Source: Bilabrum cf. latius
Lineage: Eukaryota
Assembly (NCBI GenBank): GCA_965178125.1
Contig: OZ237773.1
Location: forward strand, 496,001 to 560,000
Reading direction: 5' to 3'
DNA: 64,000 bases
In this document: positions 24,039 through 54,224 of the stretch, one piece after another
How positions within the stretch are numbered: the stretch's first letter is position 1
How the letters are laid out: every line of letters starts with the position of its first letter
Notes under the pieces: generated by a model
Seen by the model: only the letters and a program-made list of their open reading frames with translations
Databases searched by the model: none
Told to the model about the DNA's origin: nothing
Program-made: the position numbers and the translations under genes

Positions 24039-24923
24039 TTACTCCTCGATCGTCTTCGCGGCTGTCCGTCGCACGCGCCGCTTGTACTGCTTCCTATCAT
24101 TCACATACAGTCGCGCGGCATCGACGTTTGCCGGTGAGTCGCAATTGGGATCTGTCAGCAGCGACTGGATAGATGTGAGCAGCATGTCTACCGTGTAGAT
24201 TGGCTTCCATAGATTCTGGATGATATCCAGGCAGATTGATCCATCGGGGTACACTGCATAAAAAATTCGGATTCGAGTCAGGGCGGCAGCGAAGTCATCT
24301 CGAATCGTTTGCCTCGGCAACTTTACCAACCATTCCGTCTCACCGTTTGGATGAAACATCTCGCAAGTGAACCGAACCTTGGGTGCTTTGTTTGGATACT
24401 GGTCTGGAAAAGTGAGCCTCAACGAGAAAATCCCTCCTGCGTGCTCGGCAAAACACTAGAGTGAGGCGCAAATTGTGGTGAGGGAGAAAGTGCTCGCTCA
24501 GTGTCGGGGTGAACGAGCGCCAGCTCACCCTCCCAAGGGCTTTCCTCTGGCCCCATAATGGAAGCATTCCAAATAAACAAGTTGTCTTCACTCATTGGGC
24601 TTGCTGATACTCCCTGCGATAGCCAGTGAAGCATTCTTGGACGGGACGTAGACGTCTCGAAGTAGCAACCATTCCATATACAGCGACTACAAATACATCA
24701 ATCTTACAGGTGGGGCATCTTCCTACAGGCGTTTCATATCAGATACTAAGCGAAGGGTGGCAACGCGTCTGTCCTTGCCAGAAGATGCCACGGACTTCGG
24801 TTTCGGCGCAGGTGCGGGAGCTGCGGCTGGGGCCGGAGCAGGAGCTGCTGTGCTGGAGGATCCAGAGACCCCAGATGACCCTTCTGATTGACCTGAACCG
24901 GATGTTCCTGCAACTGCCGCCAT
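24039..24923 (-). CDS. RAD6: Ubiquitin-conjugating enzyme, Rad6/UBE2A family; 3 introns
   Basis: RLVSDMKRL(TAG 24723)EDAPP | [22 protein letters not shown]...WEG | GIFSL...FHPN | [24 protein letters not shown] junctions restore the frame; ends TAA 24039-24041. Confidence 0.93.
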
Positions 24924-25141
24924 TATTTTCGAGGTTGCTCTGATCTCGCCTGCCCAGCCGATTGGTGGTTGCGTGCACATAGACGAACCGGAATTTCCCG
25001 GAATCGTGTAAATTTCTTGGCGCATTCTGGTGTGTCTAAAACTCGGCAAAGCTGCTCCTACGCAGGAAGACCGGCCTAGTTAGGCAACGTGGATGACCTA
25101 AGGCTTGCCGAATGGCAAAGAGCGGACTAGGATCTCCTCTA

Positions 25142-26087
25142 ATGCAAGCGCAGGATCCCTATCATACATTCAGCGAGTGAGTTTGGGCGATTGAGCAAAT
25201 TTCATCGTATACTTGCGCGCACTGCATGCTCGGTTCACGATATAGCATTATAAGGTTGCGGAAAACCCGCACCGCAGAGATCTTCAGGAGCGGTTGGAGC
25301 GGCTAAGGGTGGATTTAGGGGACTGGAACTCTCTGTTGACAAGCACGAATACCGCAACAAATGTAGGATTTTAGACAAAAGACAGCAGTGAGTTCAAGAT
25401 ATGGTACAAATATGTACGGCTCTTTAGTAGTTTCCCTTCCACCCATCTACTTGCACCGAATCTGGGCCTAAGCTGCGCGACGTCGCAGCAATCCGGAAGA
25501 GCCTAGGACTTGCCAGGAAGAAGCTGAAGATGGTTAGAGTAACCATCGCTGGGGTTGAAAAGAATAGAGCAAAGTTCGATTACATTGACGACGAAGAGCT
25601 CGAGTCGCGGAAGGAGTTCGTCGATCGGTCCACGGCGCAGCTGGACGAGATCCAGGAGGAGCTGGATGCCCCTTCCTCCAAGCAGAAGCTCGACAGGGAC
25701 AAAAAGGCAGCGGAAAAGGTGCGCTCGCAGACCTCTGCAGACGCGGCTGGCAGCTCCAATCGGTACACGAGGTCGCATGGGCGGTTCATGGGGGACCAGC
25801 GGGAGGCGCAGGCGACGGTGATGCACGACCAGGAGCAGCACCTGGAGGCGATCGAGGGCTCCGTGGTGCGGCTGGAGGAACACGCAAGGGCCATCCACAC
25901 GGAGCTGGGCGAGCAGGACACGCTGATAGACGATCTGGACAAGGACGTGGACGACGCTCAGGGCAACTTGGACAGGGCCATGCAGCTGATCCAGACCCTG
26001 CTGGACACAAAGGACAACTGCACGCTGTGCTCCATCGCAATCCTTGTCATCATCCTGCTCGTGCTGGCCATCGTGGCGTTCTCATGA
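25142..26087 (+). CDS. Syntaxin-6-like Qc-SNARE; 2 introns
   Basis: N-terminal DPY motif, ELESRKEFV, SNARE motif with ELGEQDTLIDDLD, C-terminal TM. TAG at 25372 in exon 2; ends TGA. Confidence 0.85.
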
Positions 26088-26274
26088 GCACTCGGATGGA
26101 TAGCGGGGTGCATGGAACTGGTCCTTGCGGAGGGTGAGTGCCGTTGAGTTATCGTCTGTCCGCGCGTGCCTCGGCTAGGCCACAGCTATTCGAGGCACGG
26201 TTTCGGCGGGTGTGCTTGTCAAGTTGAACTGATGCATGGTAGTCTTCGGTTACAATTCGTCCAAAGCGCTGCAG

Positions 26275-27873
26275 TCAGCCCAGGGCACCCGTCAAGTCCC
26301 GCAGCAGCCCGGCATCTCGTTCATGCAGCACCCTCCGCAGCCCCCCAGCGCCCAACACACTCTGCATGCATGCAGGAGACAGCCGCACCAGCCATGCCCC
26401 TCGCGAGAAGCCAGTCGCAGAGTCCGGCGGCATTCCATCACCACCGCCACTGCCACTGCCACCGCCAGAGGGGCCTCCCTCTCCCACCGCTGACTTGATA
26501 GTCCCCCCAGATTCGCCCGCTGCGCGTGCCCCGTCCAATGGCAGGGGCTCCTCCGTTTCCTCCTCTGCCCCCGCTACTGCGCTGCAATGCCACTGCCGAT
26601 CGAAGAGCAGCGCGCCCACGCCAAGGGCATCCCCGGGCCGATGCAGCGAGCCCAGCGCATCAGCTGGCGCCCTGGGTTCGTCCTGCGTGCAAAGGGACAC
26701 GGAGCCCCTCACCAAAACCAGCATGCCCGGGCTGGGCTGCCACTGCCGCGCAAGCACAGACCCTGGTGCCCCTGTGATGTCAGCGGCGCGGCCTGCCAGC
26801 TGCCTCTTCTCCTCCCGGGAGAGAACATCGAGCCATCTGCAACGACTCAGGGCATGTGCCCGTGCCTGTTCCCTGGCTTGTTCCCTGACCTGGCACACGG
26901 TCGCCCGCACAGCCGCAGGCAGCACCAGCAGCGCGCAGCCCCGCCGGGCCACGATGTGGTGGGCCCACCGGGCCCCGGGCACCCCGCTGCTCCTGCCACT
27001 GAGCACGGAGGGGCCCTCGGTGACGGTGCCGGCCTGCCGTGCCGCCCACTGTGCGGGGGTTGCCAGTGCGGGGACATCCACCTAGTCTGCCCCCCCTGAT
27101 GCTGCTGATTCTGGTGTCGCTGTGCCAGCGCCAGCACCTTCGCTTGCAATGCGCCCTGCGAGCGCACAGGCGAACCCATGACCGATTGCCTCCTCGTTTC
27201 GATGAACCGTAACCCCAACGTCAGCAGCACTGGCACTGGCACTGGCACTGGCACCAGTGCTCGGTTCGCCAGCCCCTGCATCTGCCCCTGCATCTGTTCT
27301 CGGTACTGAGGCGCGAGGCAGCTTGCCAACCGCCACGACCTGGCCTTCTAGCAGCGCAATTGCCTGCACGGGCTCCCCCGCAACAGCCAGGACGGTGCCG
27401 GCAGGACAACGAGCCAGCAGCGAGCGTCGCCAGCAAGACTCAAAATCCCATGGGTGAACACCTAGGCCCCTGTCCCCGGACCACGCATGCGAATGCCGGC
27501 TCTAGCAGCCCTCCAATTGAATCGACAACCGCTACAGCTATCCCGCAGTTGGGGTTATGGCACTACGCACCACCGGCAAATTGCAGACGACGCCTGCTGG
27601 CCTCCTCGCGGACACTGCCGGCTGACTGGTGGGAGGCGATTGTTGTTCTCCCCGCAAGTCCTCCTCATCAGAACTGTATGAATGCTCAATAATCGAACGA
27701 AAACGGGCCTAGGAACCTCCACTGAGCTCGGGGTACCGTTGTTGCAAGTATCGTATAATAAAACGTACAGGGTTTCGAGGTTTCTCTGAGCACAGCGACA
27801 CAACAATATCATCAAACAGCTGATGGATGCCGTGGCTCGCTAAATACTACTAGATTACCTTGGATGAGCTCAT
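26275..27873 (-). CDS. PKA regulatory-subunit-like protein (D/D domain plus degenerate cNMP-binding domains), 532 aa
   Basis: MSSSKVI(TAG)(TAG)YLASHGIHQLFDDIVVSLCSEKPRNPVRFIIRYL is a docking/dimerisation motif; cNMP-like IALLEGQV and LVLVRGSV...GDALGVGALL. Seven TAGs in one frame; ends TGA. Confidence 0.7.
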
Positions 27874-27981
27874 TGGAACGCCTTTATGGGCCTCAAACGG
27901 ATAGATCCAAGACTGCTGCAGCGCAGGGGTGATGAGTGCATCAAGCAACTGCAGTTTGTGCATTACCCATCCATCATTTAC

Positions 27982-29313
27982 ATGTCGGATGGGAACGATG
28001 ACTTAATTAGCATAAGTCGGTCGAGGCAACTATTGGGAGCCCTTGAATTGCGGCCAAACGAGCACGAATTCGATGATGCACCCGAGGAATCTGGGAAATC
28101 ATCAGCCAATACCCCGTGGTGGCGGAGCAGCATTATGTATTATGCCGCAGGAATAGGAGCTTTTGTATTCATTATTGCCGTGGTAGTCGGTTGGATCGCG
28201 ACTATGAAACGCTGGGACAAATAGGAAGAGATTTTCAGCTCATCATTTGCGACACCGCAAGACTCATTCACGTCTGGAATAGAGGGAGCCGTAGTTGGCA
28301 GCGACGGTGTACCGTATGCTTGCGATGCAGCTTCTGTTGAGGAAGCGAACCTTGCGAGAATAGATCCGTCATCTGGCGCCATCCACGTCGTGTTCAAATT
28401 TCCAACGGGAGGCGGCTGTGTGGGGGCCCGATACCGTGAGATTGGCGGTGTGTTGGCCGGCGAGTCCGCATCAAGGTCTATAAATGCGACTGCTTCGCAA
28501 ACGAGCTGGGGTGATCTGATATTGACAGACTACAAGCACCACACGCTGCTCCTGGTCGACACATCCCTGCCTCCGCCGTGGAGCTCCCGCGTGGTGCTGG
28601 AGGGCCCCTTCACTCAGCCAAACGATCTGGCCATGACGCCGGGGGGACGCTTCGTGTTCTTAAGCGACCCAAATTTCCCTGCCAGCAGCGGCAGGATCTG
28701 GCGCGCTCGCTGGGACGGCTCGAGCTCCTCCTTCGTTGACCTCCAGCTGGTGGCTAGCGAGGGACTGACCACAGCCAACGGGATTGAGATTCTGGACACG
28801 AGTGGGGATGGAGGGTCAGGGGAAGAGGTGTCGTGGACGCTGGTGGCCAGCGAGAGCGCCGCGCAGGTGATCAGGCAGTGGCCCATTGACCCCAATACGG
28901 GGTCACTTGGGAGCCCCTCGGTGCTGCTGGACCTGTCCACCGCCAAGCCGAGCTTTGACTTTGATGGGATGCGAGCTACCACGGACGGTGTGCTGTACGT
29001 GACGATGAATGCGGGTGGGGGCCGTGTGCTGGCGATCACACCGCAGGGGCAGGTGCTGTGCGAGATAGACGCGCTGGGCGCGGGACCCTCCAACATCGCG
29101 TTCGGCGGCAGCGACGGGCGGACTGCATTCGTCACGCAGGTCAAGGGGGGTAGGGTCGTGCAGTTCCGGGTACCGCACGAGGGGTCCGCGTTCGCCCGCA
29201 TGCACGGCCGGGCGTCGTGGGACCCACGCAAGCAAGCACAGCAGGGGCAGCGCAAGTGGATGGACTGCAGACTCAAAACCGAGCAGATCTACACGTCTCA
29301 AGTGGCGAAGTGA
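27982..29313 (+). CDS. Membrane-anchored SMP-30/gluconolactonase family protein
   Basis: N-terminal TM, then GIEG, PNDL, ANGIE, FDGMR and PSNIAFGGSDGRTAFVT. TAG at 28222; ends TGA. Alternative start 27886. Confidence 0.85.
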
Positions 29314-29487: not shown

Positions 29488-32400
29488 TCAGTTGTCCACT
29501 TCCGGGATCATCTCATCCAGCTCCTGCTCCAGCTGCCTCATCTCCGCGGAGGAGGGCCGCAGGCTAGGCCCGTGTGCAGCCCGCTAGGCCCTAGACGAGG
29601 CCAGCGGGCGGGGCCGCCGCTGCACCGGGCTGCTCAGCGGCGTGGTGGAGGGACGTCCCGCTGCCGGACCACTCACTGCTTCCGCTGCCTCTGCGGCGCT
29701 GGCCATCCCCTCTAGCGCGAAGCTGTCGTCCAGCGACACCCCCCTCCCACCCCCACTGCCACTACCAGACTCGCTATCACCCGATTTCGAGAAGCCCCCC
29801 ACCCCTCCCCTAGGCCCCTGCCCCGCCAAGGCAGCGAGTAGATCAGCCTCGAGCGCACCTGCTCTCCGCCGGGCCTGCGACGGAGACAGCCACCGGTGGC
29901 GGGGCCTAGAGCGGCGGCTGTCCCCAGCATTAGCACCCGCAATTGCGCCCAAATTGGCACAGCCCGAATGCGCAGCATCACCGGCACGGCTATCCGCGCC
30001 TGGCTCCAGACCTTGCCCTTGGCCTTGTCCTTGGCCTTGTCCTTGGCCTTGCCCTTGCCCCCGCCACTGACCCCGCTCGCGGTCGATGCTACCAACGGAA
30101 GCTGTCACGCTGGCTCGACTGGAGAGATGTGGGCGGTTCGCACCTCCGTGCAGTGCACCCGCGCCCCCGCCCCACCTGCGGTCGGCATGCTCTCGGGCTC
30201 TGTCCCCGTCTCCGGCAAGCAGCCCCGGCCCCATGCCTGTCCCTGTCGCATCACCATACGGAGGGATTTCCCACGGGAGCCTGCTGTGCCTGTCCATCAC
30301 TCCCCCCGGGCGCAGTCTCAGCGCTGCCTCCCCCAGCACCTGCACCGGGGAAGCGGGTGTATCCGTGTCAAATGCAGCCGAAAGCATGGCCATGTCCTCC
30401 GGAGACAGCCACGAGGCAGGGGCGGACACACCCCCACCCAGGTCCTCTCCCCCTCCCTCTCCCTCTCCCTCCTCCCGGCCCCCCTCCAGTTCCACATCTC
30501 CATCGCTGAGAGCATCCCCGCGAGCCCCTTCACCTCCATCGCGGCCCCCCCCCTCCCCCTCCCTATCCATCTCCCCGCCTTGCTCCCGACTGGACCTTCC
30601 GCTGCTGCCAGTCGCGAACCTCACGTGGAAGTCCGCCCTCTTCCTCCGCTGGATGGCAGAGGAGGCGCTGGACCTGGACATGGACATGGCAGAGGGGGCT
30701 CGGGAGGATGCGCTGCCCTCGTGGCCTTGACCTTGACCTTGACCTTGACCATGTTCAAGCGCCTTACCATCCTATTCATCCTCGTTTCCTGCTTCGGCCC
30801 CGCGCTCCTCGTGCTAGCTGCGATCCACCCTTCGCATGTCCCCGTCCCCCGAGGACCCGGAGTCCCCTTCAGTGAGGACACCCCCCCACCCCGATCCAGC
30901 CTGGTACATCGCAGCGGCCAGATGAGGAGGCTGCCCCACGTCATCGGCAGCCCCTCGGTCCACTGGGTCGAAGGCCAATCGGCCCCTGCCCCCCCCTGCA
31001 GGTCTTCCTGGCGGCCCCTGCAGCCCTCGAGGCACCGGGTGTCCATCCTCCGCACCGCCATCCCGGCTGTCGTCACCGTGTCCCGAGTTCGAGTCGCTGT
31101 CGCTGTCACTGTCGGTGGCCTCGTCATCATTACCACCCTTGTCTTCATCTTCATCTTCGTCATCGTCATCGTCCTCAAGAGCGTCACCATGGGACCCAGC
31201 AGCCCCCACTGAGGTCCTCCCGTCCTCGTCCTCGCCCTCGCTGTCCTGCTCCCGGTCCGCAACGGTGGGCAGCAGCCCGACGATGCCCCCTGCAACCGAG
31301 CCCCCCTTCTCCTTCTCGCTGCCCCCCACGTCCACCCGTCCACCATGACCTCTCCTGGCCCCACCGGCCCTCCCCATCGCGCCGGTCTTCGTGCCCTGCT
31401 TGCGGCGCTTCTACGCGAAAGCAGCAGCTGACCCCGTGCCCCGGCGCGGCCTCCACCCGAACCGAGGCCGAGTGCCTGTGGTGGCGGAGGCGCCTCCCCC
31501 GCTGCCACTGCCGGGGGCTGGTACCTCGCGCCCTGCCCCGGAACCCGCCCTGCCAGCCACACCGGTCTATGCGACTCCTGCCTGTCTATCCTCTTCCCCC
31601 CCCCTCCCCTCCTCGTCGTCGTGTCCCTCTCCACCTGGGCCCGACCCAGCGCTCAGGCCCTCGCTGAAGGACCGGGGCCTTCGCCTCTATCCCCGCCCAA
31701 TCCCACGACCCGCCCTTGCCCTTGCCCTTGCCTGCGCCGCAACCACAGAGGCAGATGGACCCACATCATAGTCCGTGTCTGCGTCAGTCGGTACATCGCT
31801 CTCCCCGTCGTGATGGTGCTCCTGATTTCTACCCCTCTCATGGCGCATGCCCTCACTCGCTGGCACACCGTCCAGCTCCTATCCGATGCCTTCACCCTCC
31901 GCCTCCACCTCACGGATGCGTCTCCCGCGACCCACGTCTGCATCGCCCACCACCCCAACCACGCTGCCACTCGCGCTCCCATTCCCACGCACGGGCTGGT
32001 GCGGGCCGGGGTCTCTCAACCGGTGTGACGAGTGCTACGCAGAGTCCCACCGGATCCCCCGCATCCTGCCACCTCCACCGGCGATGCCAGCCGGGGATAG
32101 ATCCACGCCCCCCTCATTCTCACCACCATTGCCATCTTCCACATCCTCCTCGCGCGCGCTGCCCTGTAGCCCAGGACCGCCCGCTGCCCCGGGCATCTGC
32201 CGCAGGGACGGTGACGGTGGCCTGGCCACCACAGAGGCCACCTCCACGTGTGACGCATCGTCCGCCACATCCCCCTCGACGTCCCCTCCTCCATCGCTGG
32301 TCCCCGCACCCGCCCGGGGCACACTCCCCACAGATGCTGCCTCCCGCCGGCTCCCCACAGCGGGCGAGAGAGCACCCCCCCCCTCACGGGACCCTCCACT

Positions 32401-33456: not shown

Positions 33457-33602
33457 TGCGAAGTGGCACCTCGCTCGGCCACCCCCACGGCCGACAGTAA
33501 ACCGTGGAGCGACCCAAGCCCGCTCTTGGTTCCGCTAGATTGCGCGGCAACAGTTCGAAATCATGCGCGCCGGCCGCATACTCGGCTTCGCGTGATAGCA
33601 CC

Positions 33603-35466
33603 ATGGCGGGCAAGATGCGCATGGGAATGAGATAGCCCGGTATGACCGGATTGTTGAAGGATGGGTACAAGCACATGGAAGGACTGGAAGGTGCCATCTT
33701 GAAGAATGTAGAGGCGTGCAAGAAGCTGTCTGGCATTACCCGGACCTCCTTGGGACCAAACGGGATGAACAAGCTGGTGATCAACCACTTGGAAAAAATA
33801 TTTGTTACGAGTGATGCGGCAACTATTGTGCAGGAGCTGGAAGTGCAGCACCCCGCAGCGAAAATGTTGGTCATGGCAGCACAGATGTAGGAAAACGAGG
33901 TGAGATACACGGCTCAGCGGGTTTCCCGAGGTGTGCGGCGCGCGCCCGCACGGGCCTATTCAATACGCCATCTTGCCAAGCACCATACATTTGAGTGACG
34001 CAGGTAGGTGATGGCGCGAACCTTGTGGTCACGTTTGCTGGCGAGTTGCTTTCTCAAACCGACGAGCTTCTTCGAATGGTGAGCTAAACCAAGCATGAGG
34101 AACCACTGCATGCACCGTGCGAACTTGTGCCTGTCACACCGCCTTCTATGTTACGAGTCTGCCTATATTATCCCTGCAGGGAGTGCACCCCAGCGACGTT
34201 GTGACTGGATACCGGGCGGCTGCCGCCAAAGTCATGGAGCTGCTCCCGTCCCTCAGCACAGTTGATCTCGGGGAGGACGACGTCAGGGATCCTGCCAAGC
34301 TGGCCGTCCCGTTGCGCAGCGTGATCGCCGCCAAGCAGCTGGGCCTGGAGGGCGTGGTGGCGCCCCTGGTGGCGCAGGCATGCGTGAACGTGATGCCGGC
34401 CAAGCCCCGCAAGCCGTCGATCAACATCGACAACGTGCGCGTGGCGAAGATCGTCGGCGGCAACGTGCGGGACAGCCAGGTGGTCCGCGGCATGGTGGTG
34501 CTTCGGGACGCGGAGGGCACGATCAAGCACGTGGAGGGTGCCAAGGTGGCCGTGTTCGGGGTGGGGCTGGAGGCCTCCGAGACGGAAACCAAGGGGACGG
34601 TGGTGCTCAAGTCCGCGGAGGAGCTCAAGAGCTACACGGACGGCGAGGAGGCGCGCATGGAGGCCTCCATCAAGGCCATCGCGGACTCGGGGGCCACAGT
34701 CGTGGTGAGCGGGGGCAGCATCAGCGAGATCGCGCTGCACTACATCGAAAAGTTCGGTCTCATGGCGCTCAAGATCGTGTCCAAGTTCGAGCTGAGGAGG
34801 CTCTGCAGGGCCACTGGAGCCACCGCGCTGGTCAAGCTGGAGGCACCCACGGAGGCGGACCTGGGGCGGGCGGACGTGGTGTCGGTGCAGGAGCTGTCTG
34901 GGAGGAGGGTGGTGGTGGTGCGGCAGGACGACGAGGAGAGCGCCATCAGCACCATCGTGCTGCGAGGCGCGACCACCAGTCTGCTGGATGACCTCGAGAG
35001 GTCTGTGGACGGGGCCGTGAACGCCGCTAGAAACCTGTGCAGGGACGGGCGCTCCCTCCCAGGCGCGGGTGCCACCGAGACCGCGCTGGCCCTCAAGCTG
35101 GCCGAGTTCGCGGGCACCAAGACGGGCCTGGAGCAGTACGCCATCACCAAGTTCGCCGATGCGCTCGAGGTGGTGCCCCGCACCCTGGCCGAGAACTCCG
35201 GCCGGTCTGCCACGGAGACCATGAGCCGATTGTTCGCGGAGCACACGGCGGGCAAGGGGGCCCAGGGCGTGCTCATCGACCCTGAGTCGGCGGAGGCCAC
35301 TGTGGACACGGAGGAGGAGGCCATCCACGACGGGTATGCCGCCAAGGAGAGCGCGCTCAAGCTTGCGGCTGACGCTGCTATCACTGTGCTGCGAGTCGAC
35401 CACATCATCATGAGCAAGCAGGCGGGCGGACCCAAGCCCAGGGCTCCGGGGCCGCCCGACATGTGA
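33603..35466 (+). CDS. CCT8: Chaperonin CCT theta; exons 33603-33899, 34004-34078, 34180-35466
   Basis: TRTSLGPNGMNKLVINHLEKIFVTSDAATI, MAAQM(TAG 33888)ENE|VGDGAN, SKFELRRLCR, VDHIIMSKQAGGPK. Second TAG at 33633; ends TGA. Confidence 0.97.
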
Positions 35467-35682: not shown

Positions 35683-35860
35683 GGGCACCTGCCTCCCCGG
35701 AGCGAGAGAGCTCAGTTGCCCTCCATGGGCACCTGCCTCCCAGGAGCGAGAGAGCTCAGTTGCCCTCCATGGGCACCTGCCTTCCAGGAGCGAGAGAGCT
35801 CAGTTGCCCTCCATGGGCACCTGCCTCCCAGGAGCGAGAGAGCTCAGTTGCCCTCCATGG
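35683..35860. repeat. Tandem repeat, 4 x 44 bp, overlapping the HGD stop codon
   Basis: Unit gggcacctgcctcccaggagcgagagagctcagttgccctccat starts at 35683, 35727, 35771 and 35815. Confidence 0.95.
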
Positions 35861-37594: not shown

Positions 37595-37699
37595 ACTGTA
37601 AGGAAACAATGAGCAAAAGAAGCTGGAACAACCAGAAACTGCAAGATTCGACGAACACCTGGCCAAGCCGCCAAACTGCACGTTATAAAAATCGAATGT

Positions 37700-39450: not shown

Positions 39451-39567
39451 GGGGATTTTTCCCGGGATTTTTCCCAGACTGGCACAACCTGACGAGTGCC
39501 TGTGAACCGGTCCTGGCTGATCTGCTGATGGCGCAAGCGCGAAAATCACATGCAAAGCAAACTATGA

Positions 39568-42500
39568 TTACTCCAGCGTGGCCAGGTGCACTGCAGCCCC
39601 CAGGTGCGCCGAGTCATGCTCCCGCAGCACCGCCTCCAGGTCCCGCCTGGCCGCGTCCTTGCGCCCGAGCCCGGCCTGGCCGAGCCCCCGGAGGAACTTG
39701 CATAGGCAGCGGTTGGCCGCTCCCAGGTCGGCCTCGAACACGAGGAACTCGGGCAGCGACACCGCGAAGAAATCGATCTCGGGCCTGTCCCCCTCGTGGT
39801 TGTCTCCGAAGTCAACCAGCCCCTGGAAGCTGCGCCGCGCCCCCGACTCGTCCCCCAGGGCCCTCCTGGCCAGCCCCTGGTAGAACTGCATCTCCGGGGG
39901 CTGGTCGTTGTAGTACATCTGGCCGCCGCTCACCTCCTCCTTCCCCTCGGCAGCCCGCCCCAGAGCCGCCCTCGCCTCCTGCTCCTGGCCCAGCCCACGG
40001 AGCGCCATGCCCCGCAGGTAGTCCACCACGTTCTCCCTGTGCCCCGGCAGCTTGCCCTCGCCCAGACTCTCCGGCCAGTGGTCCGTCAGCGCCAGCAGCT
40101 CCAGCGCCCGCCGCATCCCGGCCTTACCCCCCTCTTTCATCGCCTCCCGCGCGAGCCCCGCCACGGCCCACGTGAACTGAGCGGGTACCTTGCCCTCGCC
40201 CCCCTCCCAGGGCCTGAACTGCCGGCTCAGCACCAGGTCCAGCGCGTCCTGGTGTCTCCCCAGCCGGTTGAGCAGCGAGACCTGCTCCACGCACAGGTCG
40301 TCTCTCGAGGAAACCAGCGATGGGTGCTGCTGCAGGCGAGCCAGTCTCGTAGCAGGTGCCTCCTTGCGGCGCTTGGCCAGCTGGTCCAGCTCAAAGAGCA
40401 CACGCGCGTCATTGGGCGCCAGCTAAAAGGCCTTCTTCAGGCACTTCCACCCGGCCTCGTCGTCCTTGCTCACATTCACGAGGGCCAGTCCCAGGTTCCT
40501 GTGGGCCGTGGGCAGGCCCTCAGGGTCCCTCCTCACGGCCTCCCTCCAGCAGGCCATGGCCTGGTCCTTCTGCAGCCGGTCCATCCACAGGTTGCCCAGC
40601 TGGTACGGGGCCCGCCCGTCCTCGGGGCTCAGCCTCACGGCCTCCTCCAGCACCACCACATCCTCGGTTTTGTTGGGGAACACGGCCCCAACGGGGGCGC
40701 GGGCAGCGGCCTTGAGTTGCACATCCGCACGCTCCTCGAGCCCCGCCTCCCGCAGCACAGAGGCGAGGTGGTACCGCACCAGGCCCTCTGCATCTGCAGC
40801 TGCGGGCTGCACGAAGGGGGGCAGCTCGCCGCCCGTGCCCCTAGCGCGACCAGGCCCGCCGCAGTGGGAGTCCACCCACATCTCCAGCACCCGTGCAGCT
40901 GGGCCCAGCCTCCCCGCGGCCCTCAGGTCCAGTGCAAGCTCCGTCAGCGAGTTCCAGTCCATGCGGGACCTGGCCCTGAAGGTGGCCCAGCTCTCCTCCC
41001 CGGCGCTGCACAGCTCAAACAGCACGCCAAGGTTGAAAGGGTCCCTTCGGAGCTCCTTGCGAGCCAGAGCCAGGGCCTCCTTGCGCTGATCGGGAGAACC
41101 CGCCTCTAGCAGAAGCGCCACCAGGAGGTGCGTGGCGCGCCCGTTGTTCGAGTTGCGCTCCAGGCACATGCGCGCCATCTCCATCGCGTGCTCAGCGGGG
41201 GTGCAGGGAACAGGGGGGTCGCACGCCCCGCGAGCCGCCAGCCGAGCCAGCTCCAAGTAGGCGGGCTCCTGCCACGCGCTGCACCAGGCCGCCTTCCACA
41301 GGGCAGCCATAGCCTCTGCCTCCCGCGCGGCCCTCTTGGCGCTGCTCTCGCCCTCCAGCCGGCTCCTCTCCAGCCGCTGCTGGATGCATCGCCCCAGCAA
41401 AAAGTGGGCCTCGCCCTCTGCAGGGTTCCGGTTGTGCCTCGTCAGGCGGGTCACGGCCTGCCGCAGCAGAGGCTCTGCATCCCCCGGCCTGCCCCTGCGC
41501 ATGAGAAGCCGACCCAGGGCGGTGTTGCAGCGGCTGTCGCCGGGGTCGCGCCGGAGGGCCTCCCGGTAATACGGCTCCGGGTCCCTGGTGGCGTGTCGGT
41601 ACTGCTCCAGGTGCTGCCCAGCGAGGTAAAGGTCCTCCGTGGAGCCCAGGGTGGAGGGAGGACCGATCGGGCGGGCGGCATCGGGGGTGTCCGCGAGAGC
41701 CTTGGTGGGGTCCACGGCGGTGGCCTGCCCGGGGAGGGGCGCATCGGTCGGCTTGGGGGAGTAGGCCACCAGTTCCCGGCCTGCTGCCAGCACGCGCACT
41801 TCCAAGGCATCCTCGCTGGTGCCTGCAGGGAGGCTGGCAGTTGACTCGAAGGGGGCGGCGGGTGTGGCCCCCTGCCAGACCTCGTCCATCAGCACCTTCC
41901 CGGTGGTCCCGTCCTTGAGCTCAACGCGCACCTCAGGGTGCGACGATGTCACGTGCGCGCGCACCGTGGCTCGCCTGCCACTGCCCTTGCCCTTGTTCCC
42001 GGTGCTCATTTCCAGTCCAACGCAGGCCGCTGCAGTCGCGTTGGCCAGCCGCCCCACCCCTCTGTACGGCATAAAGTACTGCGTGAATCTCTTCTCCTCC
42101 CCGGGCTGCAGGAACGTAAAGTCCGGCTGGTTCACGGTGAAGCAGCCGCACATGAGCTCAATGTACGGACCATCCGCGTCCGTCAGGTGCCTGTCCCAGG
42201 CCCTCCCAAAGTCCGCGTGCCCCCAGGTCCACTGCTTCTTGCCCGGGGCCACGTGCCTGTTGGCCACGTGCAGCAGCCCCGCCTGCTTGCCGTGGTCGTA
42301 GGCGCCCACAAAGTTGTAGTCGCTGTAGTAGGCCATGTAGCTGGTGGGCACAGGCACGTTGGCATATCTCGAGATGTCCGTGCCCCCCCCCGGCGCGGGC
42401 CCCTCCGAGTAGTCTATCTTGTAGTACTCCCCCCTCGCGATCGGGAAGGTGCTCACGTCTCGCTCACCGTGGTCCATCACGGCCGTCACGTCCAGCGGAA

Positions 42501-43568: not shown

Positions 43569-43795
43569 AACCAAAGCAACCGCGAGTCACGCCCAAATAT
43601 ACGATTGGACGCGTCACCGCTGGATCCTGTGCGTCAAGAGTTTTGGCTCCGATTCGTGAGCTCCAGCGCCGCCAGCGTGCGTGCCTGCAGTGCAGGCGTG
43701 GCCCTGTGGGCAGCACATATTCGTATTTGAGTAAAGCACACCGATCCAGAGTCAAAAAGTTAATGCTGCAGGCAAATCCACGCAACCAAATGCGC

Positions 43796-44604
43796 TCAGT
43801 CTTCCAGCGTCTTCTGTGCAGAGCGCCTAGCCTTCCGGTTGAATGCCTTCCGGTCCTCCCTCCACTGCTTGGCCGCGTCGATATTCGCGGGGGACGAATC
43901 GTTCGGGTCACCTAGCATGGAAATGACGGACATGAGCACTGCCTCTACGCTGAGGATGGGCCTCCAGCGCTCCTCGGCAGTCTCGAGCTCGTTGAAGCGG
44001 TCCGTGCCGGGGGCATGCAGGATCGAGATACACACCTTGCCGTCCTCGTACACGTTCGGGTGCCAAATATCGCTAGTAAACTGGAGAGTGGGCGGCATGG
44101 AGGGGAAATCGTCGGGGAATGTCAGCTTGGCGGCGAAGAGGCCTCCCTCGCTGCGGAGAATGGGGTGGCGGAAGACATCAACAATCGTCCAGCAACTTGA
44201 ATCGAACCGGGGCAAGTACTGATTCTACTAAAATCATCTCACTATGGGGTGCCAGGCGGGCCTTGCAAGGTCACATCCCACTCAAAAATATTGTCTTCCT
44301 TTGCGCCGACGTTGATGAAATCAGGGGCGTCCTTCGTTAGCTCTGCGATTTGCCAGCAACAGATACAACAGATAGAACAGCACGTACATGTGCAGCGGAT
44401 CTGATCCTAAGTAGACAATTGCGCGCCAAACAATGATAAGTTTGATGGGCCCACAATTCAACTACACGGAGCAGCTCAGCTCTCACCCTTCAGTTGCCTA
44501 GCCAACAAGGTGGCAGCGTACGCCTTCGAGCTACCAGATGACGCCTTGCTGGATCCTCCGCTGCCTGCTCCACCGCCGGCACCACTGCTAGCAATTCCAG
44601 CCAT
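43796..44604 (-). CDS. UBC7: Ubiquitin-conjugating enzyme, Ubc7/UBE2G family; 2 introns
   Basis: LLARQLKEL, NIFEWDVTLQGPPGTPYEGG, WHPNVYEDGKVCISILHAPG with the acidic-loop insertion, AEERWRP. No TAG; ends TGA. Confidence 0.88.
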
Positions 44605-45366: not shown

Positions 45367-47112
45367 TCATCTCTTTCGTCGCGCCTCATGACTGGTTCCA
45401 ACTGCACCCATCAGGGGTGACGATGCCTCCCGCGGTCCCACCAACGCGCTCGCTGCTGCGGCGTCCGTGACCGCAGTGTACCCTAGCCCAAGGAACACCA
45501 CGACAAACAGGATAGAGGCGATCATCTCAGCGCCTACCGCCAGCCTCGTGTACCACCCGCTGGGGTACACAGATCCGTACCCAGTCCCGGTGAGCGTGGT
45601 CACGGAGAAGGCCAGCAGGTAGGGCACCAGTCTCGAGAAGGAGGGCACCTGCACGGGGGGCGGCTGGGCGTCCTCTCCGACACGGGGGTCGTCCGCGACA
45701 CCTCCACCGTCCGGGTCTTCTGGCTGCAGCCTGGGATGCGGCTGCCGGTGGTGCCCGTCGTCCATTGCGAAGGCGGGCTGCTGCGGCGCCACAAGGTACA
45801 GTCCCACGTAGAGCGTCCCGAAGAGCAGTGCCACCGTGGCCCCGGACTCGAGCAGAAACCGGACCCCCAGTGCCCTGAGTCCCCTGCGCTGGAGAGACAC
45901 GCAGCACGGCACACGACAGCAGCGACCTCCTTGCGCTGCAGAGTTGCCCCGCTTCACCGGCCCAGTGCCCTGCTGCCTGGATCCCAGTCCCGATGCACCG
46001 GGGCCTAGAAGAGCAGAGCCCTCCCCCACACCACTCGCCACCCCCGGCCCCGCCCCCTTGCCCAGACTTCCAATCAGCGCCCATACAAGCCCCACAAACC
46101 AGCCAGTGCTAGCCAGCTGCAGGCAGGTCCACACCGCCAGCATGCCTCCGGACACTTGCCCGCTCTGCAGCGAACGGTCCGCCCCCATGCCCGCCATGGC
46201 TCCCAGCTGCACAAGCGCCAGTGGCGCGGCCACCAGCAGGGGGTGCTCGGGGACCGCCTCCAGGGCTGTCCCTGGCCCACACGTGCACGAGCACGGCCGC
46301 TCCCAGCACCGCCACAGGCTGGGTGCGGATTCGGCGAGTGTTATGCTCGGACCCGACTCCGAGCCCCGTCTCCGGGCCGCCGCTTCGTCTGGCCCCGGGG
46401 CTACTACCAGCCCGCCCGTGGAGGCCATTCCCGGCGGGGTGTCCACGCCTGGTGCACTCGTGCCATATCCAACAGAACTAGAGGCCTGAAGAGACCCGTA
46501 TCCCTGCCGAACAGGTGCTTGACGATCTGCAGGTGGAGCAAGGCTGCCGATCGGAACCGCAGTATCTTGGTCCGTCTCGGTTGGCTCATCAGGCACCGGT
46601 TCCTGTTCTCCACCATCGGTCAAGGACTGAATAGACTATGATATGATTCCAACCGAATACAATACGCCGCTCATGGTCTGCAGGCCTGCAATGGCTCTAG
46701 CTGCAATACTCGACGGAGCGCATGCACCATAGCCCACGAGAGTCTAAATCGTTACTGACAGGAAATAGAAGGAGGTTGGATCGTCTTCCGCATCCCTCGC
46801 AAGAAGTGGGCGGTCAAAAGAAAAAGCTGTACTGTCCAATTGTGCACAGAGCAGGTATAATCCACCGAAAGCTAGCAGAGTCGATGCGTAGTACATCAGA
46901 GCACTCGACAGCGAAGGCAGTACTCCTCGAAACACCAGGCCTATTGTTGCTACTGATAATAGAATCCACTGCATGCACGTAATCGCAAACATTGCTCCAT
47001 AGCCCCTGTCCAAAAGGGCAGTCACGCACACGAGTGCAACCTGGAGAAGGAATGAGGACACTAGAAGGACCTGCGCTCCGATGAATAGATGCAAACCATG
47101 GCTTTCGCTCAT
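45367..47112 (-). CDS. Potassium-channel-like protein with two pore domains
   Basis: Pore 1 FYFLSVTI(TAG 46744)TLVGYGA; pore 2 FSVTTLTGTGYGS; second TAG 46636; ends TGA. An in-frame upstream ATG exists at 47160. Confidence 0.82.
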
Positions 47113-47286: not shown

Positions 47287-48455
47287 ATGCGGACGCTGGC
47301 TCTGCTCCTCGGTTCAATTGTAGTCAGTGCATACGCAGCTACCCTAGGAGTGGTTTCGGTCGACAAATATACCATTCACAAGGTGAGACAAAGGAAGATC
47401 CCAACAAGTGGCCCAACTGGCCAGGTGGCACACTCTCATGCCAAGCAGGATGCGCATGCCAGGGCGCAGTAGATCACGGTACCATGCCTCATGTACTACA
47501 TACATGCAAATTGATCCGATGCAAGCGTTAGGTAGGCTCTGCGAAGCAGTGTCCGTGAGGCCCGTCTTCCTGCAGGCCACGTGGCTCCCTGGCAGGGTGG
47601 GACGGTCTGAGCCTTCCTCCCTGATTTCTAAGTCGAAACATGCGCAGCGTTGTGTAGTTTCCACTATGTTCTCTTGGGTTTTATCTATAAACCCGAACTG
47701 TCAGCCATGGCAATGTGCCACGTGCCACTGCGCCCTCACCCACCACGTGCTGCCGCTGCCACTCGCAGGTGGTCGATGGCTCCCGCAGCGTGCTGCTCAA
47801 GTTGGACACGACCTATCCGTACGGGGAGAAGGAGGACCAGTTCAAAGACCTTGCAAAGAGAGTGGGCGAGGCGGGCGATCGGGCCAGCGACCTGATCGTG
47901 GCCGAGGCGGGCGTGCAGGACTACGGGGACAAGACCAACAAGGAATTAGCGGACCGGATGGGCGTGAGCAAGGATGACTTCCCCGCGTATTTCTTGTTCC
48001 CCAAGGGCAAAACGGCAGACGAAAAGCCCATCAGGTACAGCGGCGAGCCGAATGCCAACGACGTCGCCAGGTTCCTGCGGGCTGAGGCCGGCGTGCGGGT
48101 GGGTCTCCCCGGCACCATCCCTGCCTTGGACGATGCCGCGGGGCACTTCGTGGCTGCACTGGCTGCGGGAGATGCGGAGGGACAGGCAGCTGCACGGACC
48201 GAGGCTGAGGAGGTTGTGGAGGGGCTGGAGGTGGGCAGCGAGGACGTGCGCTTGGGAAAGTACTACCTGGGTGTGATGAGCAAGGCAGCCAAGGCCGAGG
48301 AGTAGGCGACTGGCACCTGGAGCGATGCGGTTAGAAAGGAGCAGGGGCGGCTGCAGCGGCTGCGGGACAGCAAGGGTGTGACTGAGGAGAAGAAGAAGGA
48401 GTTTGGCAGGAAGCTCAACGTGCTTCCGTCCTTCGACGCACCCGCGAAAGCTTGA
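47287..48455 (+). CDS. ERP29: ERp29-like ER protein; exons 47287-47382 and 47769-48455
   Basis: Signal peptide, VLLKLDTTYPYGEKEDQF, VQDYGDKTNKELA. The D-domain end (EQGRLQRL...KLNVLPSF) lies after TAG 48303; ends TGA. Confidence 0.9.
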
Positions 48456-48654
48456 TCCAAATTGGGTCTGGTCTGATCGGATGCTGTGGGTTCTGCTCCT
48501 GGCCCAGAACACGTCTGGCTGCTGGGCATACGAACATTCGATGGAATCCGCAATAATGAACATTGAATGGTACAGATAGGAAGAATTAACCATCTATGGT
48601 ACGCCCTCCGGCCACTGCAAGCGCGGCGCACTCTCCTGCTCCTCTTCGCCCCGC

Positions 48655-49746
48655 TCAGCCGTCGATGTCCTCCTCCTCATCTGCCTCCATAGCAGCATCC
48701 CCTTCACCACCGCCAGACGCAGCCTCGGCCAGTCGCCGGCCCTCTGCCACCGCATGCGCCAGGTTCTCTGGGGGCACCATGGAGAAGGCCCCCGGCTTGC
48801 CGTCCTCGCCAAGCTTGATCCACGCCATCTCCACCTCCATGGGCTTCTCCTTCGAGTCGTCGTGCACCGTGTGCAGCATGCGCGATACGTCAGTGAGGGC
48901 CTCCTCCGATGATTTGCTCCACAACTTGGCCTTCTCGACCTCGGTCTTGCACGTGCGGGCCCCCTTCCCGATGGCGATCCCGAAGAAGCGGTGGTACGTG
49001 CCATCCACCTCCACCATGTACAGCTCCCAGCCAGACGCGCTGCCGTCGGCGCCCTCCTCGCCAGCAGCAGCCTTCTCGGCATCGTATCCTGCTATCAATA
49101 CCTGGGCACCGAACGGCCTGTATCCCCCGCTTGTGGTGTAGGCGTACACCACGTCTGCGAGCTGCTCGGCTAGCATCTTGGGCGGGACTGGCTCGCCCCA
49201 GTTCTTTCGGTGGCTTGAGGCAATCCGCTGGGCGTATAGAACAATCGATCTAGCATCTCCTGCCAATCCCGTGACAACCAGTCCGACGTGCTTGTCGATC
49301 GCAAAGCATCGCCTGTCGCTGCCCTTGACAAGCAGGCGCGATACCCGAAGTTTCTCCACACCCAGCACAACCCCATCTGTGCATCTCACGCCAACGGCAG
49401 TCCTGCAGACTTGAAAATGGTACAAACCAGACGTGCTCATGCTAATAATTACGAAAGGAAATCGTGAATTTTGGATGATGCTCGCTTTGGTTAGATGCTG
49501 GTACATCGAGCTTCCTACAAGAATCTCACCCCGCTGCGTCCACTGCTTTCTGTGCGTATTCCAGCTAAATCACCTTTCCCTCGGGTGAAATCACATTGGT
49601 CGAGTAATCATACTGCGGTGGAAGGCAATCAAGCAAAGTGCTGGCTAGGATTTCAAGTGAGACTTGAGCACAGCTCATTCTTCATGGCACAAAGAAGCGG
49701 GTTGAGAAACCTGTACTATTCTTACTCCTGCGGCTGTACTGGCCAT
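48655..49746 (-). CDS. PSMA3: 20S proteasome subunit alpha7; exons 49746-49726, 49612-49530, 49402-48655
   Basis: MASTAAG|YDYSTNVISPEGKVI(TAG 49565)LEYAQKAV|GTAVGVRCTDGVVLGVEKL, YRPFG, AIGKG, HDDSKEKPMEVEMAW; ends TGA. Confidence 0.92.
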
Positions 49747-49976: not shown

Positions 49977-52900
49977 ATGGACTTCGGTGCAGCAGGAATA
50001 ATCGCTTTGCTGGATGAAGAGGACGAGCAGCTCCAGGTAAGAACGCGATTCAAGTTGGAGCCGGGCGTGGCACTTGTTTTTACCGGACATGGTCGCATGC
50101 GCGTAGCCGATCCCAGCAGTTCATAAATCATTTACTACGGTCTGTCTCCGTGGTTTCATGAATCTGGAAATGTCGCAGGTGTTTGCACTGCGCAAGCTAG
50201 CAACGGTGATCGACCGTCATTGGGCCGAGGTATCCGATTGCCTCCTGCAGATTGAGGAACTGAGCGAGACGGACGGATTTGATGGAAAGCAAATTGCTGC
50301 TTTTGTGGCGTCGAAGTGCCACTTCCACCTGGAGCAGTACGAGGACGCCTTGCGGTTCGCGCTGGAATCCGGCAATCATTTTGACGTGGCAGTCAAGGGC
50401 GATGAGTTTGTCGACTGCATGGTCGCCCAAGCCATAGATTAGTACGCTACCCTCAGAAAAGCGGCTGCATCGGATCCTGATGATGCTGCCCCAATCGACG
50501 CCTCGCTCGAGCGAGTGGTCAACAGCATGTTTGAGCGATGCCTGTCCGATGCTGCCTTCGAGCAGGCGGTCGGCATGGCGATCGAGTGCCACCGCCTCGA
50601 TATCATTAAGGACGCCGTGACTCGGGCTGCCGCCGGAGACACCCGCGCGAGCCAGGAGCGGGCGGAGGCGCTGCTGCGGTACTCGTTCGACCTCTCCCAG
50701 AGCAAGGTGCCTGGCCGGGCTTTCAGGCAGCAGATCGTGGAGGCTATCACGGAGCTGCACCGCGCACAGGCCTCGGTGGACCACCTGGCCCTGGTGCGGT
50801 GCCTGGAGGCCCTCGGGGATGCCGACGGGATCGCAGCCCTGCTGGTTGGGCTGCTGGGGGCCCCTGAGGAGGACGAGCGGGCGCACCTGGTGGCCTACCA
50901 GATCTGCTTCGACCTGGTGGAGGACGGAGACCAGCGGGTGCTGGCTGCGGTCAGGGGCGCGCTCCCCGACAAGCAGGGGACCCAGGGGGGTGGGGATGGA
51001 TCCGCTGGTGGAGAGGGCGAGGAGGGGGGTGCTGCGGCCGACGGGGGTGCGGAGGGGGAGGCAGCGGGGGATGCAGCAGCAGGAGATGGGGCGGAGCCTT
51101 CGGCTGCAGTGGCTCGCGCGACGGAGGGGGTAGACCTGCCCGCTGATAGCAAGGCGCCCGTGTATGACCGCTTCCGGTAGGCGAGGTCGATCCTGAGCGG
51201 CATCGAGTCGCTGCGGCTGCACCTGCACGTGCTGCACAAGCTCAACAACGCGGACCCGCTGGTGCTGCAGCGCATCAAGCAGGCTCAGGAGAGGTTCAAC
51301 CCTGTCACGCACCAGGCGTCCTTCGGGGCACACGCGATCATGTACTGCGGGACCACCTCGGATAGGTTTCTCCGGGAGAACGTGGCGTGGATGGGCAAGG
51401 CATCCAACTGGAGCAAGTTCGCCGTGGTGGCCGGCATGGGGGTGGTGCACAAGGGAAACGTCGAGTCGGCCCTCACCGTGTACGAGCCATACCTCCCCAA
51501 CCCCGCGCGGGGGGGAGCCTCCAATCCGTACGAAGCAGGCGGTGCCATGTATGGCCTGGGTCTAATCTTCGCCAACTGCGGCGGGACGGGCGTGGGAGGC
51601 ACCAAGCAGAGGCTGCTGCAGGAGCTAAACAGCAGCGTGCACACGATGCAGATGCAGGCGTCCCATGGAGGCGACGCACCGGGAATGCAGAACGGCGGGC
51701 TGCCTGGACATGTGAGAGATACGCGCACTGACTCTAACTTTCGCAGGTTTGGTTAATCGTGCTTGTCATGGCTTTGGTGTGGATTGCCCCGTGACGATTT
51801 CCCGTTTGGGACGATTGCATTGCCGAAGGCCCCTCGGGGCCTGCTGCGGATCTTCTCACTGACGTCTTCTGAGGGTTGTTTGTGCTGCTCGCGAGCTCGT
51901 TGGTCACTTGAATGCGTTGTGGATTGCCCCGTGACGATTTCCCGTTTGGGACGATTGCATTGCCGAAGGCCCCTCGGGGCCTGCTGCGGATCTTCTCACT
52001 GACGTCTTCTGAGGGTTGTTTGTGCTGCTCGCGAGCTCGTTGGTCACTTGAATGCGTTGTGGATTACCCCGTGACGATTTCCCGTTTGGGACGATTGCAT
52101 TGCCGAAGGCCCCTCGGGGCCTGCTGCGGATCTTCTCACTGACGTCTTCTGAGGGTTGTGTGTGCTGCTCGCGAGCCGTTCGATTCCGCTTTGATTCCGC
52201 TTTGCCGGTAATCATGTATTATGTCCCTTATTCTCCTGCTTCCATCTCGCAGCAAGTTGCCCACGGTGCCTGCCTGGGCCTGGGTCTGGCGTGCATGGGC
52301 ACGGGCGATGCCGAGTCTCTCGAGTCCTTGCTGGCAGTTGCCAAGATGGAGTCTGCCACCGCAGGGGAGGCAGCCGGATACTCGATGGGGTTGCTGCTGG
52401 CCGGCAGCGGCATGTCGAGAGACCTGACTGGGCATGATGCTGGGGCTGGTGAGCCCACGGCTCGCGAGACTCTGTTAGATCTGGCGCAGCGCACGAGCCA
52501 CGAGAAGGTAACCCGCGGGCTGGCAGTGGGCCTGGCCCTCTCTTGCTACGGCCGGGAGGACGAGGCAGATGCCTTCTTGGAGCAGATGACCTCGCACAAG
52601 GACCCCATGATCCGGTACGGAGGCATGCTTGCCGTGGCTATCGCGTACAGCGGCACGGCAGACCGCACGCGCGTCAAGCAGTTGCTGCACGTGGCTGTCA
52701 GCGACGTGTCGGACCAAGTCAGGCGAGCCGCCGTGATCGGCCTCGGGTTCTTGCTGTGCAGGCAGCCCGAGCAGCTGCCGCCTCTGGTCGCTCTGCTCGC
52801 GGAGTCGTTCAACCCCCACGTCAGGTACGGTGCCGCCATGGCCACTGGGATCGCGTGCGCCGCCACAGGCATGCCTCAGGCCATGGCCCTGCTGCAGCCC

Positions 52901-54224
52901 CTGCTAGACGACAGCGTTGATTTCGTGCGTCAGGGCGCCTACATCGCAGGTGCCATGGTGCTGCAGCAGGAGAGCGAGGCGCGCACCCCGCAGGTGAAGG
53001 CATTCCGCGCTAAGATCGCCAAGGTATCTGCAGATGCAAGGTTGCACCCCACCATGGCGCGCGTGGGTGCTATCCTTGCTTCAGGTATCATCGACGCAGG
53101 AGGCAGGAACGCCTGTGTTGGACTTCGGTAAGTCGCTGTGGCCTGACATGTGGCTCTGCCGCAGTTCGCCTGTCCATAGCTTGCGATTGCATGGCTGGGT
53201 TCATCCCTTGGTGCTGCCTTCCGCTCTCAAGATCCCCATCGCTGCTTTTGCTTCTTCCCTCGCTCGCAGTTCTAGGGCGGGTTTCCAGCGCATGCCGGCC
53301 GTGCTGGGCATGGCGCTGTTCGTGCAGTACTGGTACTGGCTGCCGCTGACCCACTGCCTCTCTCTGGCCGTGCACCCCACGGCCCTCGTGGGGCTGCACA
53401 AGTCCCTCAAGATCCCCAAGTCCTTCCAGGCAGAGTGCCTCTGCAAGCCTTCGCTCTTCGCATACCCCGAGCCCCTGCACGTGAAGAAGGAGGCCGAGGA
53501 CAAAAAGGTGGAGGTCGTGGAGCTCTCTACCTCGGCCAAGGCCAGGGACAGGGCCAGGCGGAGGGCGCAGCGGAAGAACAGGGACGGGGCCGGCTCGGAG
53601 ATATCCACCCCCTCGGGCAAGGGCAGGGCCCCCTCGGCGCTGACCCCGCTGTCGGACTCGGGGCGGGGTGCCTCGGGGCAGTCGCAGGGGGACGAGGGGG
53701 GTGCAGCGCAGGGTGGTGCTTCGCCTATGAAAGGGGGTGACGAGGACGAGGGAACAGGCGCTGCCGCTGGTGCGGGGGCCGGGGACGAGGGCGAGGACGG
53801 GAAGGGGTCATCAAAGGGCAAGCAGGGAGGCAAGGACAAGAGCGGGAAGGAGGAGGCCCGGTCCTTTGCGCTGACCAACCCCAGTCGTGTGACGTTGCCG
53901 CAGCAGCGCTTCGTGCGTTTCTCGCAGAAGGGCAGGTGGGTGCCGGTGCGCAAGGACGCTTCTCTCAACCTGGGCGCCGTAATGCTGATGGACCAGGGCA
54001 AGGCGGCGGCCGGGACGGGTGCTGCGGCTGCAAGCGACGGCTCCGCCAAGATGGAGGACGGGGCCGATGCGACCGCAGCTGCTTCTGGGAGCGGGAAGGT
54101 GGAGGAGGAGGAGGACGACGATCTCGAGGAGGTGCACGTCCCGCGGCCGGGCGAGGAGGAGGAGAAGGACTACGAGGCACCAGCGGAGTTCGTGTGGGTG
54201 GTTGGTGACTACGTTGACTTCTAA
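49977..54224 (+). CDS. PSMD1: 26S proteasome subunit Rpn2; exons 49977-50036, 50179-51711, 52253-53127, 53270-54224
   Basis: AAGIIALLDE, GTTSDRFLREN..W..KASNWSKF, LLHVAVSDVSDQVRRAAV, ESFNPHVRYG, QYWYWLPL. TAGs at 50440 and 51178; ends TAA. Confidence 0.96.
51778..52176 (+). repeat. Intronic tandem repeat, 140-bp unit x ~2.9, candidate box C/D snoRNA array
   Basis: Period 140 (51781, 51921, 52061). Each unit has GTGACGA...CTGA with short complementary flanks. The repeat is certain; the snoRNA call is tentative. Confidence 0.9.

Follow-up and report, generated by a model that had tools for sequence, protein, structure and literature searches.

The stretch of DNA considered here, the 64-kb window of contig OZ237773.1 (positions 496,001 to 560,000 of the contig; all coordinates below are those of the window), has 61.9% G+C and carries eukaryotic housekeeping genes on both strands, as recognized by Pfam profile matches. 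These genes encode glycerate kinase, CCDC47, a GRAM/VASt protein, a Rad6-type E2, a syntaxin-6-like SNARE, CCT-theta, homogentisate 1,2-dioxygenase (HGD), a second E2, ERp29, a proteasome alpha subunit, RPN2/PSMD1, NAD-dependent glycerol-3-phosphate dehydrogenase (GPDH) and an amino-acid transporter, and several very long low-complexity proteins are likewise encoded. Contigs from three sequencing runs, here called X6, X7 and X8, have the letters of the window with no difference listed, and skip ten segments with GT..AG ends. The spliceosomal introns together with the housekeeping genes identify the window as nuclear DNA of a GC-rich, cellular eukaryote. With the standard stops, most of the genes are broken; when TAG is read through, each becomes one open frame, the longest having 3,008 codons. 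The evidence presented below makes it highly probable that the nuclear code is of the NCBI table 15 type, with UAG encoding Gln and with UAA and UGA as dedicated terminators.

In-frame codons were counted in 17 coding segments comprising 15,793 codons, with open reading frames (ORFs) delimited using TAA as a stop. TAG occurs in frame 68 times, and TAA and TGA do not occur at all. The two other frames of the same segments contain 34 and 27 TAA, 109 and 92 TAG, and 257 and 294 TGA. UGA is not a sense codon, given its absence in frame from all 17 segments, and the frequent internal TAA at Gln positions that would contradict a dedicated UAA stop is not found. The tally of stops covers 22 modelled gene 3' ends in this one 64-kb window: 19 are TGA, three are TAA and none is TAG, so that the other pattern at odds with such a code, many genes ending at TAG, is also absent. 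The original prediction had named TGA as the dominant stop, which holds, and had counted 20 TGA ends, of which 19 were found, with no 23rd gene. The predominance of TGA and the small share of TAA can be attributed to the high GC content of the genome (62%).

Where they can be checked, the TGA ends are orthologous. The TGA of CCT-theta (35464..35466, plus strand) falls in the same alignment column as the ends of 45 of 91 full-length homologues, and is at most three residues from the C-termini of all 91. For glycerate kinase (gene 3464-5284, minus strand, with a Pfam match; TGA at 3464..3466), a PDB alignment extends to residue 600 of 608. Domain profiles stop 3-21 residues short of TGA in four further genes: the syntaxin-6-like SNARE (26085..26087, plus), where the SNARE profile runs to position 52 of 53 at residue 228 of 231; the second E2, with its UQ_con match (43796..43798, minus); the ERp29-like gene (48453..48455, plus); and GPDH (55653..55655, plus). 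The last three are modelled from Pfam matches and spliced contigs.

One alternative is a context-dependent code, in which TAG or TAA would serve as sense codon or stop depending on position, as in Condylostoma, the karyorelicts and Blastocrithidia. A TAG does sit two codons after the TAA that ends the DUF5107 gene described below, and rare genes of this kind could escape a sample of 22 ends. However, in this window-sized sample the two roles do not overlap: the 68 TAGs are all internal, and TAA and TGA are found only at ends. If TAG had an assumed share of 15-35% among stops, its absence from all 22 ends would have a probability of 0.028 to 8e-5, and no conserved gene has TAG at the C-terminus of its homologues. 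A context-dependent code is thus quite improbable.

Evidence that TAA terminates translation comes from the three genes that end with it. The original prediction had placed these stops at the ends of Rad6, a "YphG-like" gene and PSMD1; all three triplets were read directly and are exact, and each is the first in-frame TAA or TGA 3' of coding sequence supported by homology (to UQ_con, to DUF5107 plus TPR, and to RPN2_C, respectively). The Rad6/UBC2-type E2 is spliced, with its last exon in the ORF at 24039-24497 (minus strand) and its TAA at 24039..24041. Its UQ_con profile match reaches position 139 of 140 at residue 145 of 152. Alignment of its final 66 residues extends to residue 165 of 169 in PDB chain 5v0r_A, with five query residues left, and to residue 144 of 152 in 2aak_A, with seven left, which places the C-terminus no more than one residue from the ends of both chains. 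The DUF5107 plus TPR gene, the "YphG-like" gene of the original prediction, is modelled with exons at 39568-43098 and from 43248 to ~43589 (minus strand), and its TAA, at 39568..39570, falls where the conserved region ends. Its last residue is reached by 111 of 120 homologues, 14 of the 120 end in the same column, and the homologues continue for 0-38 unconserved residues past it. RPN2/PSMD1 (exons to 50033, 50176-51711, 52253-53126 and 53269-54224, plus strand) ends in TAA at 54222..54224, as modelled from RPN2_C and the splice joints; its tail matches PDB RPN2 chains only loosely, with 42 residues left versus 21. The claim that the three TAA stops lie at plausible C-termini therefore holds for Rad6 and the DUF5107 gene, and only loosely for RPN2.

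These cases bear directly on a second alternative, in which UAA and UAG would both encode Gln (a UAR code), TAA would be rare through GC pressure, and the real stop of each gene would be a later TGA. RPN2 fits this proposal, with a TGA in frame two codons past its TAA (54231..54233, plus strand, read directly), and TAA is rare everywhere in the window, with 203 and 193 on the two strands versus 421 and 432 TAG. If the other two TAA stops were read through, however, Rad6 would be longer by 37 codons as far as the following TAA, or by 39 as far as the following TGA, at -0.11 per codon, and the DUF5107 gene would gain 80 codons scoring 0.04, in both cases past C-termini matched by homologues. For reference, coding sequence scores 0.25 +/- 0.14 and antisense sequence -0.31 +/- 0.23. 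Thus, two of the three TAA cases, Rad6 and the DUF5107 gene, are real tests, and both favour termination at TAA.

Codon usage points in the same direction. The share of A in two-fold A/G codon pairs is 0.191 for CAA/CAG, 0.180, 0.155 and 0.145 for the others, and 0.097 for CTA/CTG. On the assumption that TAA encodes Gln alongside TAG, 7-16 in-frame TAA would be expected against the 68 TAG, and the probability of finding none is 9.7e-4 to 5.5e-7. Moreover, the in-frame TAA triplets that close several exon ORFs (at 37251, 50038, 54739, 51754-51756 and 53129-53131) lie inside introns that are removed in the spliced contigs. TAA is also the nearest upstream in-frame stop in six of the 17 segments; three of these six are in removed introns, two lie where the neighbouring gene is encoded on the other strand, and one precedes the gene at 663-2474. 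A code in which UAA and UAG are both Gln is accordingly very unlikely. The separation from that code, which the original prediction had drawn, is borne out: TAG reads as Gln, and TAA ends at least two genes past which read-through scores fall below the coding mean.

Evidence that TAG encodes Gln came from alignment columns. In HGD (minus strand), the in-frame TAG at 36864..36866 occupies a column with Gln in 110 of 120 homologues, and Gln is the commonest residue (47/120) opposite the TAG at 37173..37175. A third TAG, at 36426..36428, faces Pro in 75 and Gln in 33 of 120 homologues, with Gln in the nearest relative (79% identical) and in oomycetes. A fourth, in exon 1 (37373..37375), is opposite Gln in all three PDB HGDs found. 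In exon 1 of the proteasome alpha gene, the TAG at 49565..49567 (minus strand) is opposite Gln in a conserved N-terminal motif in all three printed PDB alignments, one of which is archaeal. The columns of the single TAG in the DUF5107 gene (Gln in 8/120) and of the three TAGs in glycerate kinase (15/148, 11/148 and 17/148) are too variable to be read singly, and entered only in summed log-odds. Summed against family background over seven sites in three families, the log-odds are +17.3 bits for Gln, +1.2 for Glu and -0.2 for Lys; all residues besides Gln and Glu are negative, with Leu at -15.9 bits. Paralogous repeats within a long FG-GAP protein give a further comparison: across the three repeats, the first two of which are identical in 211 of 437 columns, six TAGs face 10 residues, four of which are Gln.

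The alignments also contain what support there is for TAG being a sense codon for another residue, such as Glu, Lys, Leu or Tyr. PDB alignments of RPN2 and glycerate kinase have Glu, His, Lys or Asp opposite TAG, not Gln, and several TAG columns are variable. Glu, His, Lys and Asp are common replacements of Gln. Against any such assignment stand the log-odds, in which no other residue approaches Gln, together with the HGD column that is Gln in nearly all homologues and the two exon-1 TAGs that face Gln in every printed PDB alignment. Assignment of TAG to a residue other than Gln is highly unlikely.

As a Gln codon, TAG accounts for 68 of 627 Gln codons (10.8%) and is present in 15 of the 17 segments, being absent from the last exons of CCT-theta and GPDH. 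It is rare in the DUF5107 gene (1/42) and RPN2 (2/51), and commonest in poorly conserved genes (7/27 and 10/51). The effect of applying the standard code can be seen for glycerate kinase, which has TAG codons at residues 7, 169 and 323: a public protein set contains two 100%-identical fragments of this protein, covering residues 8-168 and 188-322. Standard-code gene calling has thus cut genes of this organism at TAG.

The gene models draw on contigs from four runs in three studies: X6 and X7 are from one study, X8 is from another, and the fourth run is X1. The runs date from 2025 and are not on record as RNA; from the skipped GT..AG introns, we infer that the X6-X8 contigs derive from complementary DNA. 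The X1 contigs follow the genome and contain none of the ten splice joints. The skipped introns are at 37242-37357 in HGD (minus strand); 43099-43247 in the DUF5107 gene (minus; contigs of X6 and X7); 44151-44242 and 44343-44486 in the second E2 (minus); 47381-47766 in ERp29 (plus); 49402-49528 in the proteasome alpha gene (minus); 50034-50175, 51712-52252 and 53127-53268 in RPN2 (plus; joints in X6, X7 and X8); and 54626-54789 in GPDH (plus). The joints restore continuous reading frames. The proposal that the in-frame TAGs are artefacts of assembly error, pseudogenes, missed introns or RNA editing, for which no support was found, is extremely unlikely, since 68 TAGs are spread over most segments in long frames that are otherwise intact, contigs from all four runs have the letters of the window, and the spliced contigs keep the TAG-bearing exons with unedited letters, although partial editing would be compatible with these data because contigs drop rare variants.

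Contig ends near two of the TAA stops hint only weakly, if at all, at short 3' ends and were left out of the evidence. The DUF5107 contigs end at 39523 (X6) and 39562 (X7), in the same study. The spliced RPN2 contigs of X7 and X8, from two studies, both end at 54177, 45 nt 5' of the TAA. The X8 contig has a 14-letter adapter-like loose end at this position, and the next letters of the window are not GT, leaving no obvious splice donor; the stop at 54177 may be an assembly end. The region at ~38.0-38.7 kb is without contig cover.

Several observations weigh against a code of the table 15 type with strictly dedicated stops. Of nine TAG sites tested with homologues, four are in variable columns with Gln at only 7-12%. 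The TAA of RPN2 cannot distinguish stop from sense because of the in-frame TGA two codons later. Since TAA counted as a stop in delimiting the ORFs, any gene with a true sense TAA in it would have come out in separate pieces. In the gene at 663-2474, a TAA lies three codons 5' of the ATG and is preceded by a 142-codon open stretch (2487-2912, minus strand) that scores -0.04, between coding and non-coding values; this stretch is indecisive. Finally, while TAG is never a terminator among the 22 gene ends of the window, a sample of this size leaves room for rare use, and rare read-through of TAA elsewhere in the genome is likewise compatible with one 64-kb window and 22 ends.

If UAG is Gln and UAA is a stop, UAG would, by the standard inference and as the original prediction implied, be decoded by a glutamine transfer RNA (tRNA-Gln) with anticodon CUA, which would be unable to pair with UAA. 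A tRNA with anticodon UUA would read both UAA and UAG, and such a tRNA is unlikely here because sense TAA is absent. The same argument, for a CUA-anticodon tRNA-Gln that would read UAG and not UAA, has been made for Iotanema (PMC5304391). The single eRF1 of eukaryotes would, in turn, have lost recognition of UAG and kept that of UAA and UGA. This specificity would resemble that of bacterial RF2, which reads UAA and UGA, not UAG (PMC5304391), the likeness being one of function. Neither ARAGORN nor Rfam at gathering thresholds detected a tRNA gene in the 64-kb window; no other Rfam family was detected there at gathering thresholds, and Pfam identified no eRF1 among the 22 window genes.

UAG and UAA are nearly always reassigned as a pair. 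The code in which both are Gln (NCBI table 6) is used by Tetrahymena, Oxytricha, Hexamita, ulvophycean algae and Streblomastix, as listed in PMC11687900. The window resembles table 6 in reading UAG as Gln and in having UGA as the main or only stop, but differs in that UAA, a Gln codon in table 6, is absent here from the 15,793 in-frame codons counted and ends genes. Reassignment of UAG only is described for few lineages: Iotanema, a rhizarian, Scotinosphaera, Protocruzia and a few phyllopharyngean ciliates (PMC11687900, PMC5304391). One parallel is Iotanema spirale (Fornicata), in which, as in the window, only UAG is reassigned, to Gln, and UAA and UGA serve exclusively as stops (PMC5304391). 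Iotanema belongs to another supergroup, however, and UAA predominates there (PMC5304391), in contrast to the 19/22 TGA and 3/22 TAA ends of the 62% GC window. The phyllopharyngean ciliates Hartmannula sinica and Trochilia petrani, as well as Protocruzia tuzeti, have the same table 15, on evidence of a like kind, internal UAG at conserved Gln and C-terminal alignments (PMC11687900). For H. sinica and T. petrani, UAA is the stop in 93.5-100% of the C-terminal alignments (PMC11687900), whereas the main stop here is UGA. The rhizarian exLh also splits UAG from UAA, but with UAG as Leu and with 56 UAA and 15 UGA stops (PMC5304391). Where these sources state which stops a UAG-only lineage uses, as they do for the rhizarian, Iotanema, H. 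sinica and T. petrani, genes end mainly in UAA (PMC11687900, PMC5304391). The crAss-like phages with code 15 share the codon table, but they are viruses, while the window is cellular nuclear DNA. The window represents a new, TGA-dominated lineage of a known rare code type.

The source of the window is most likely a heterotrophic stramenopile near the bicosoecids, close to Cafeteria, although this placement is tentative and comes from sequence comparison. The best named matches of HGD are to oomycetes, Rhizochromulina and Cafeteria (61-67% identity). For CCT-theta, the best matches after its own protein are 64% and 61% identical; Cafeteria roenbergensis follows at 60%, and oomycetes are 52-54% identical. 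The best JGI-sourced relatives are only 61-62% identical, which makes close relatives unlikely in metagenome and viral-contig collections. In a FastTree phylogeny of CCT-theta, the window sequence joins the Cafeteria clade with a local support of 84, within a group rich in stramenopiles; this is one gene, analyzed by a quick method with 55 sequences chosen from 120 listed.

No nuclear UAG=Gln code was found for stramenopiles in full-text literature, the coverage of which was incomplete and mostly without subscription journals, so that a report may exist elsewhere. In the available text of a review of stramenopiles (PMC11412368), the terms "genetic code" and "codon" are confined to the title of one reference, on mitochondrial codes. 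Cafeteria-type flagellates are known hosts of giant viruses (PMC6972860). It is improbable that the window documents, all at once, the first nuclear code change in stramenopiles, an independent UAG=Gln assignment with UGA as the main stop, and the type of host expected for giant viruses with TAG=Gln. A split of UAG from UAA in a GC-rich, stramenopile-like organism that ends 19 of 22 genes in UGA would mean that UAG=Gln also arose independently in a branch of its supergroup where the literature searched held no nuclear code change. It also shows that the split can exist without a genome that is AT-rich and dominated by UAA, a point relevant to the choice between codon-capture and ambiguous-intermediate models, and it implies a naturally occurring eRF1 that has to recognize UAA and UGA while ignoring UAG. 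On the practical side, standard-code annotation breaks genes at TAG, and gene callers should use table 15 rather than table 6, so that TAA is still treated as a stop.

The remaining 13 TGA ends belong to genes across the window. Four of these genes are placed by the gene-end tally, encoding a membrane protein of unknown kind (gene 663-2474; TGA at 663..665, minus strand), an unknown protein of 1013 amino acids (8502..8504, plus), a low-complexity protein of 1363 amino acids with 10 in-frame TAGs (29488..29490, minus) and an unknown protein of 1907 amino acids (55763..55765, minus). Pfam matches support the ends of the 2943-amino-acid FG-GAP repeat protein, with 17 in-frame TAGs and no TAA (17990..17992, plus), the CCDC47 homologue (18202..18204, minus), the GRAM/VASt protein (23871..23873, plus), a cNMP-binding protein with seven in-frame TAGs (26275..26277, minus), an SMP-30/gluconolactonase-like (SGL) protein (29311..29313, plus), HGD (35844..35846, minus), a two-pore-type K+ channel-like protein (45367..45369, minus), the proteasome alpha subunit (48655..48657, minus; also spliced contigs) and the amino-acid transporter (Aa_trans; 61531..61533, minus).

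The DUF5107 plus TPR gene (39568-43589, minus strand) has an unusual set of relatives. Its best 120 matches are 47-55% identical, and all of the named ones are bacterial, mostly from Planctomycetota (Pirellulales, Phycisphaera) with a few from Chloroflexota. The gene is flanked by eukaryotic genes, and has a spliceosomal intron, a GC content at third codon positions of 0.86, and an in-frame TAG. These features suggest that it is probably a bacterial gene that was transferred into a eukaryote and has since adapted to the host code. Between HGD and this gene (36001-40000), GC content falls to the window's minimum (0.538 per 4 kb), and none of the long ORFs with Pfam matches lies there.

Intergenic spacers are very short throughout the window. 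The low-complexity gene with its ATG at 33579 (minus strand) and CCT-theta, with exon 1 from ~33600 (plus), are arranged head to head with almost no spacer, as are the cNMP-binding gene (start ~27873, minus) and the SGL gene (ATG at 27886, plus). The ERp29-like gene and the proteasome alpha gene form a convergent pair, with stops ~200 nt apart at 48453 (plus) and 48655 (minus), and a single X6 contig covers the last exon of the former and the gene for the latter (47767-49403). The FG-GAP repeat protein (8969-17992, plus strand) is encoded by one frame of ~3,000 codons with 17-18 in-frame TAGs; long linkers rich in Ser and Pro lie between its three paralogous units of ~430 residues, after which come a transmembrane segment and a long tail.

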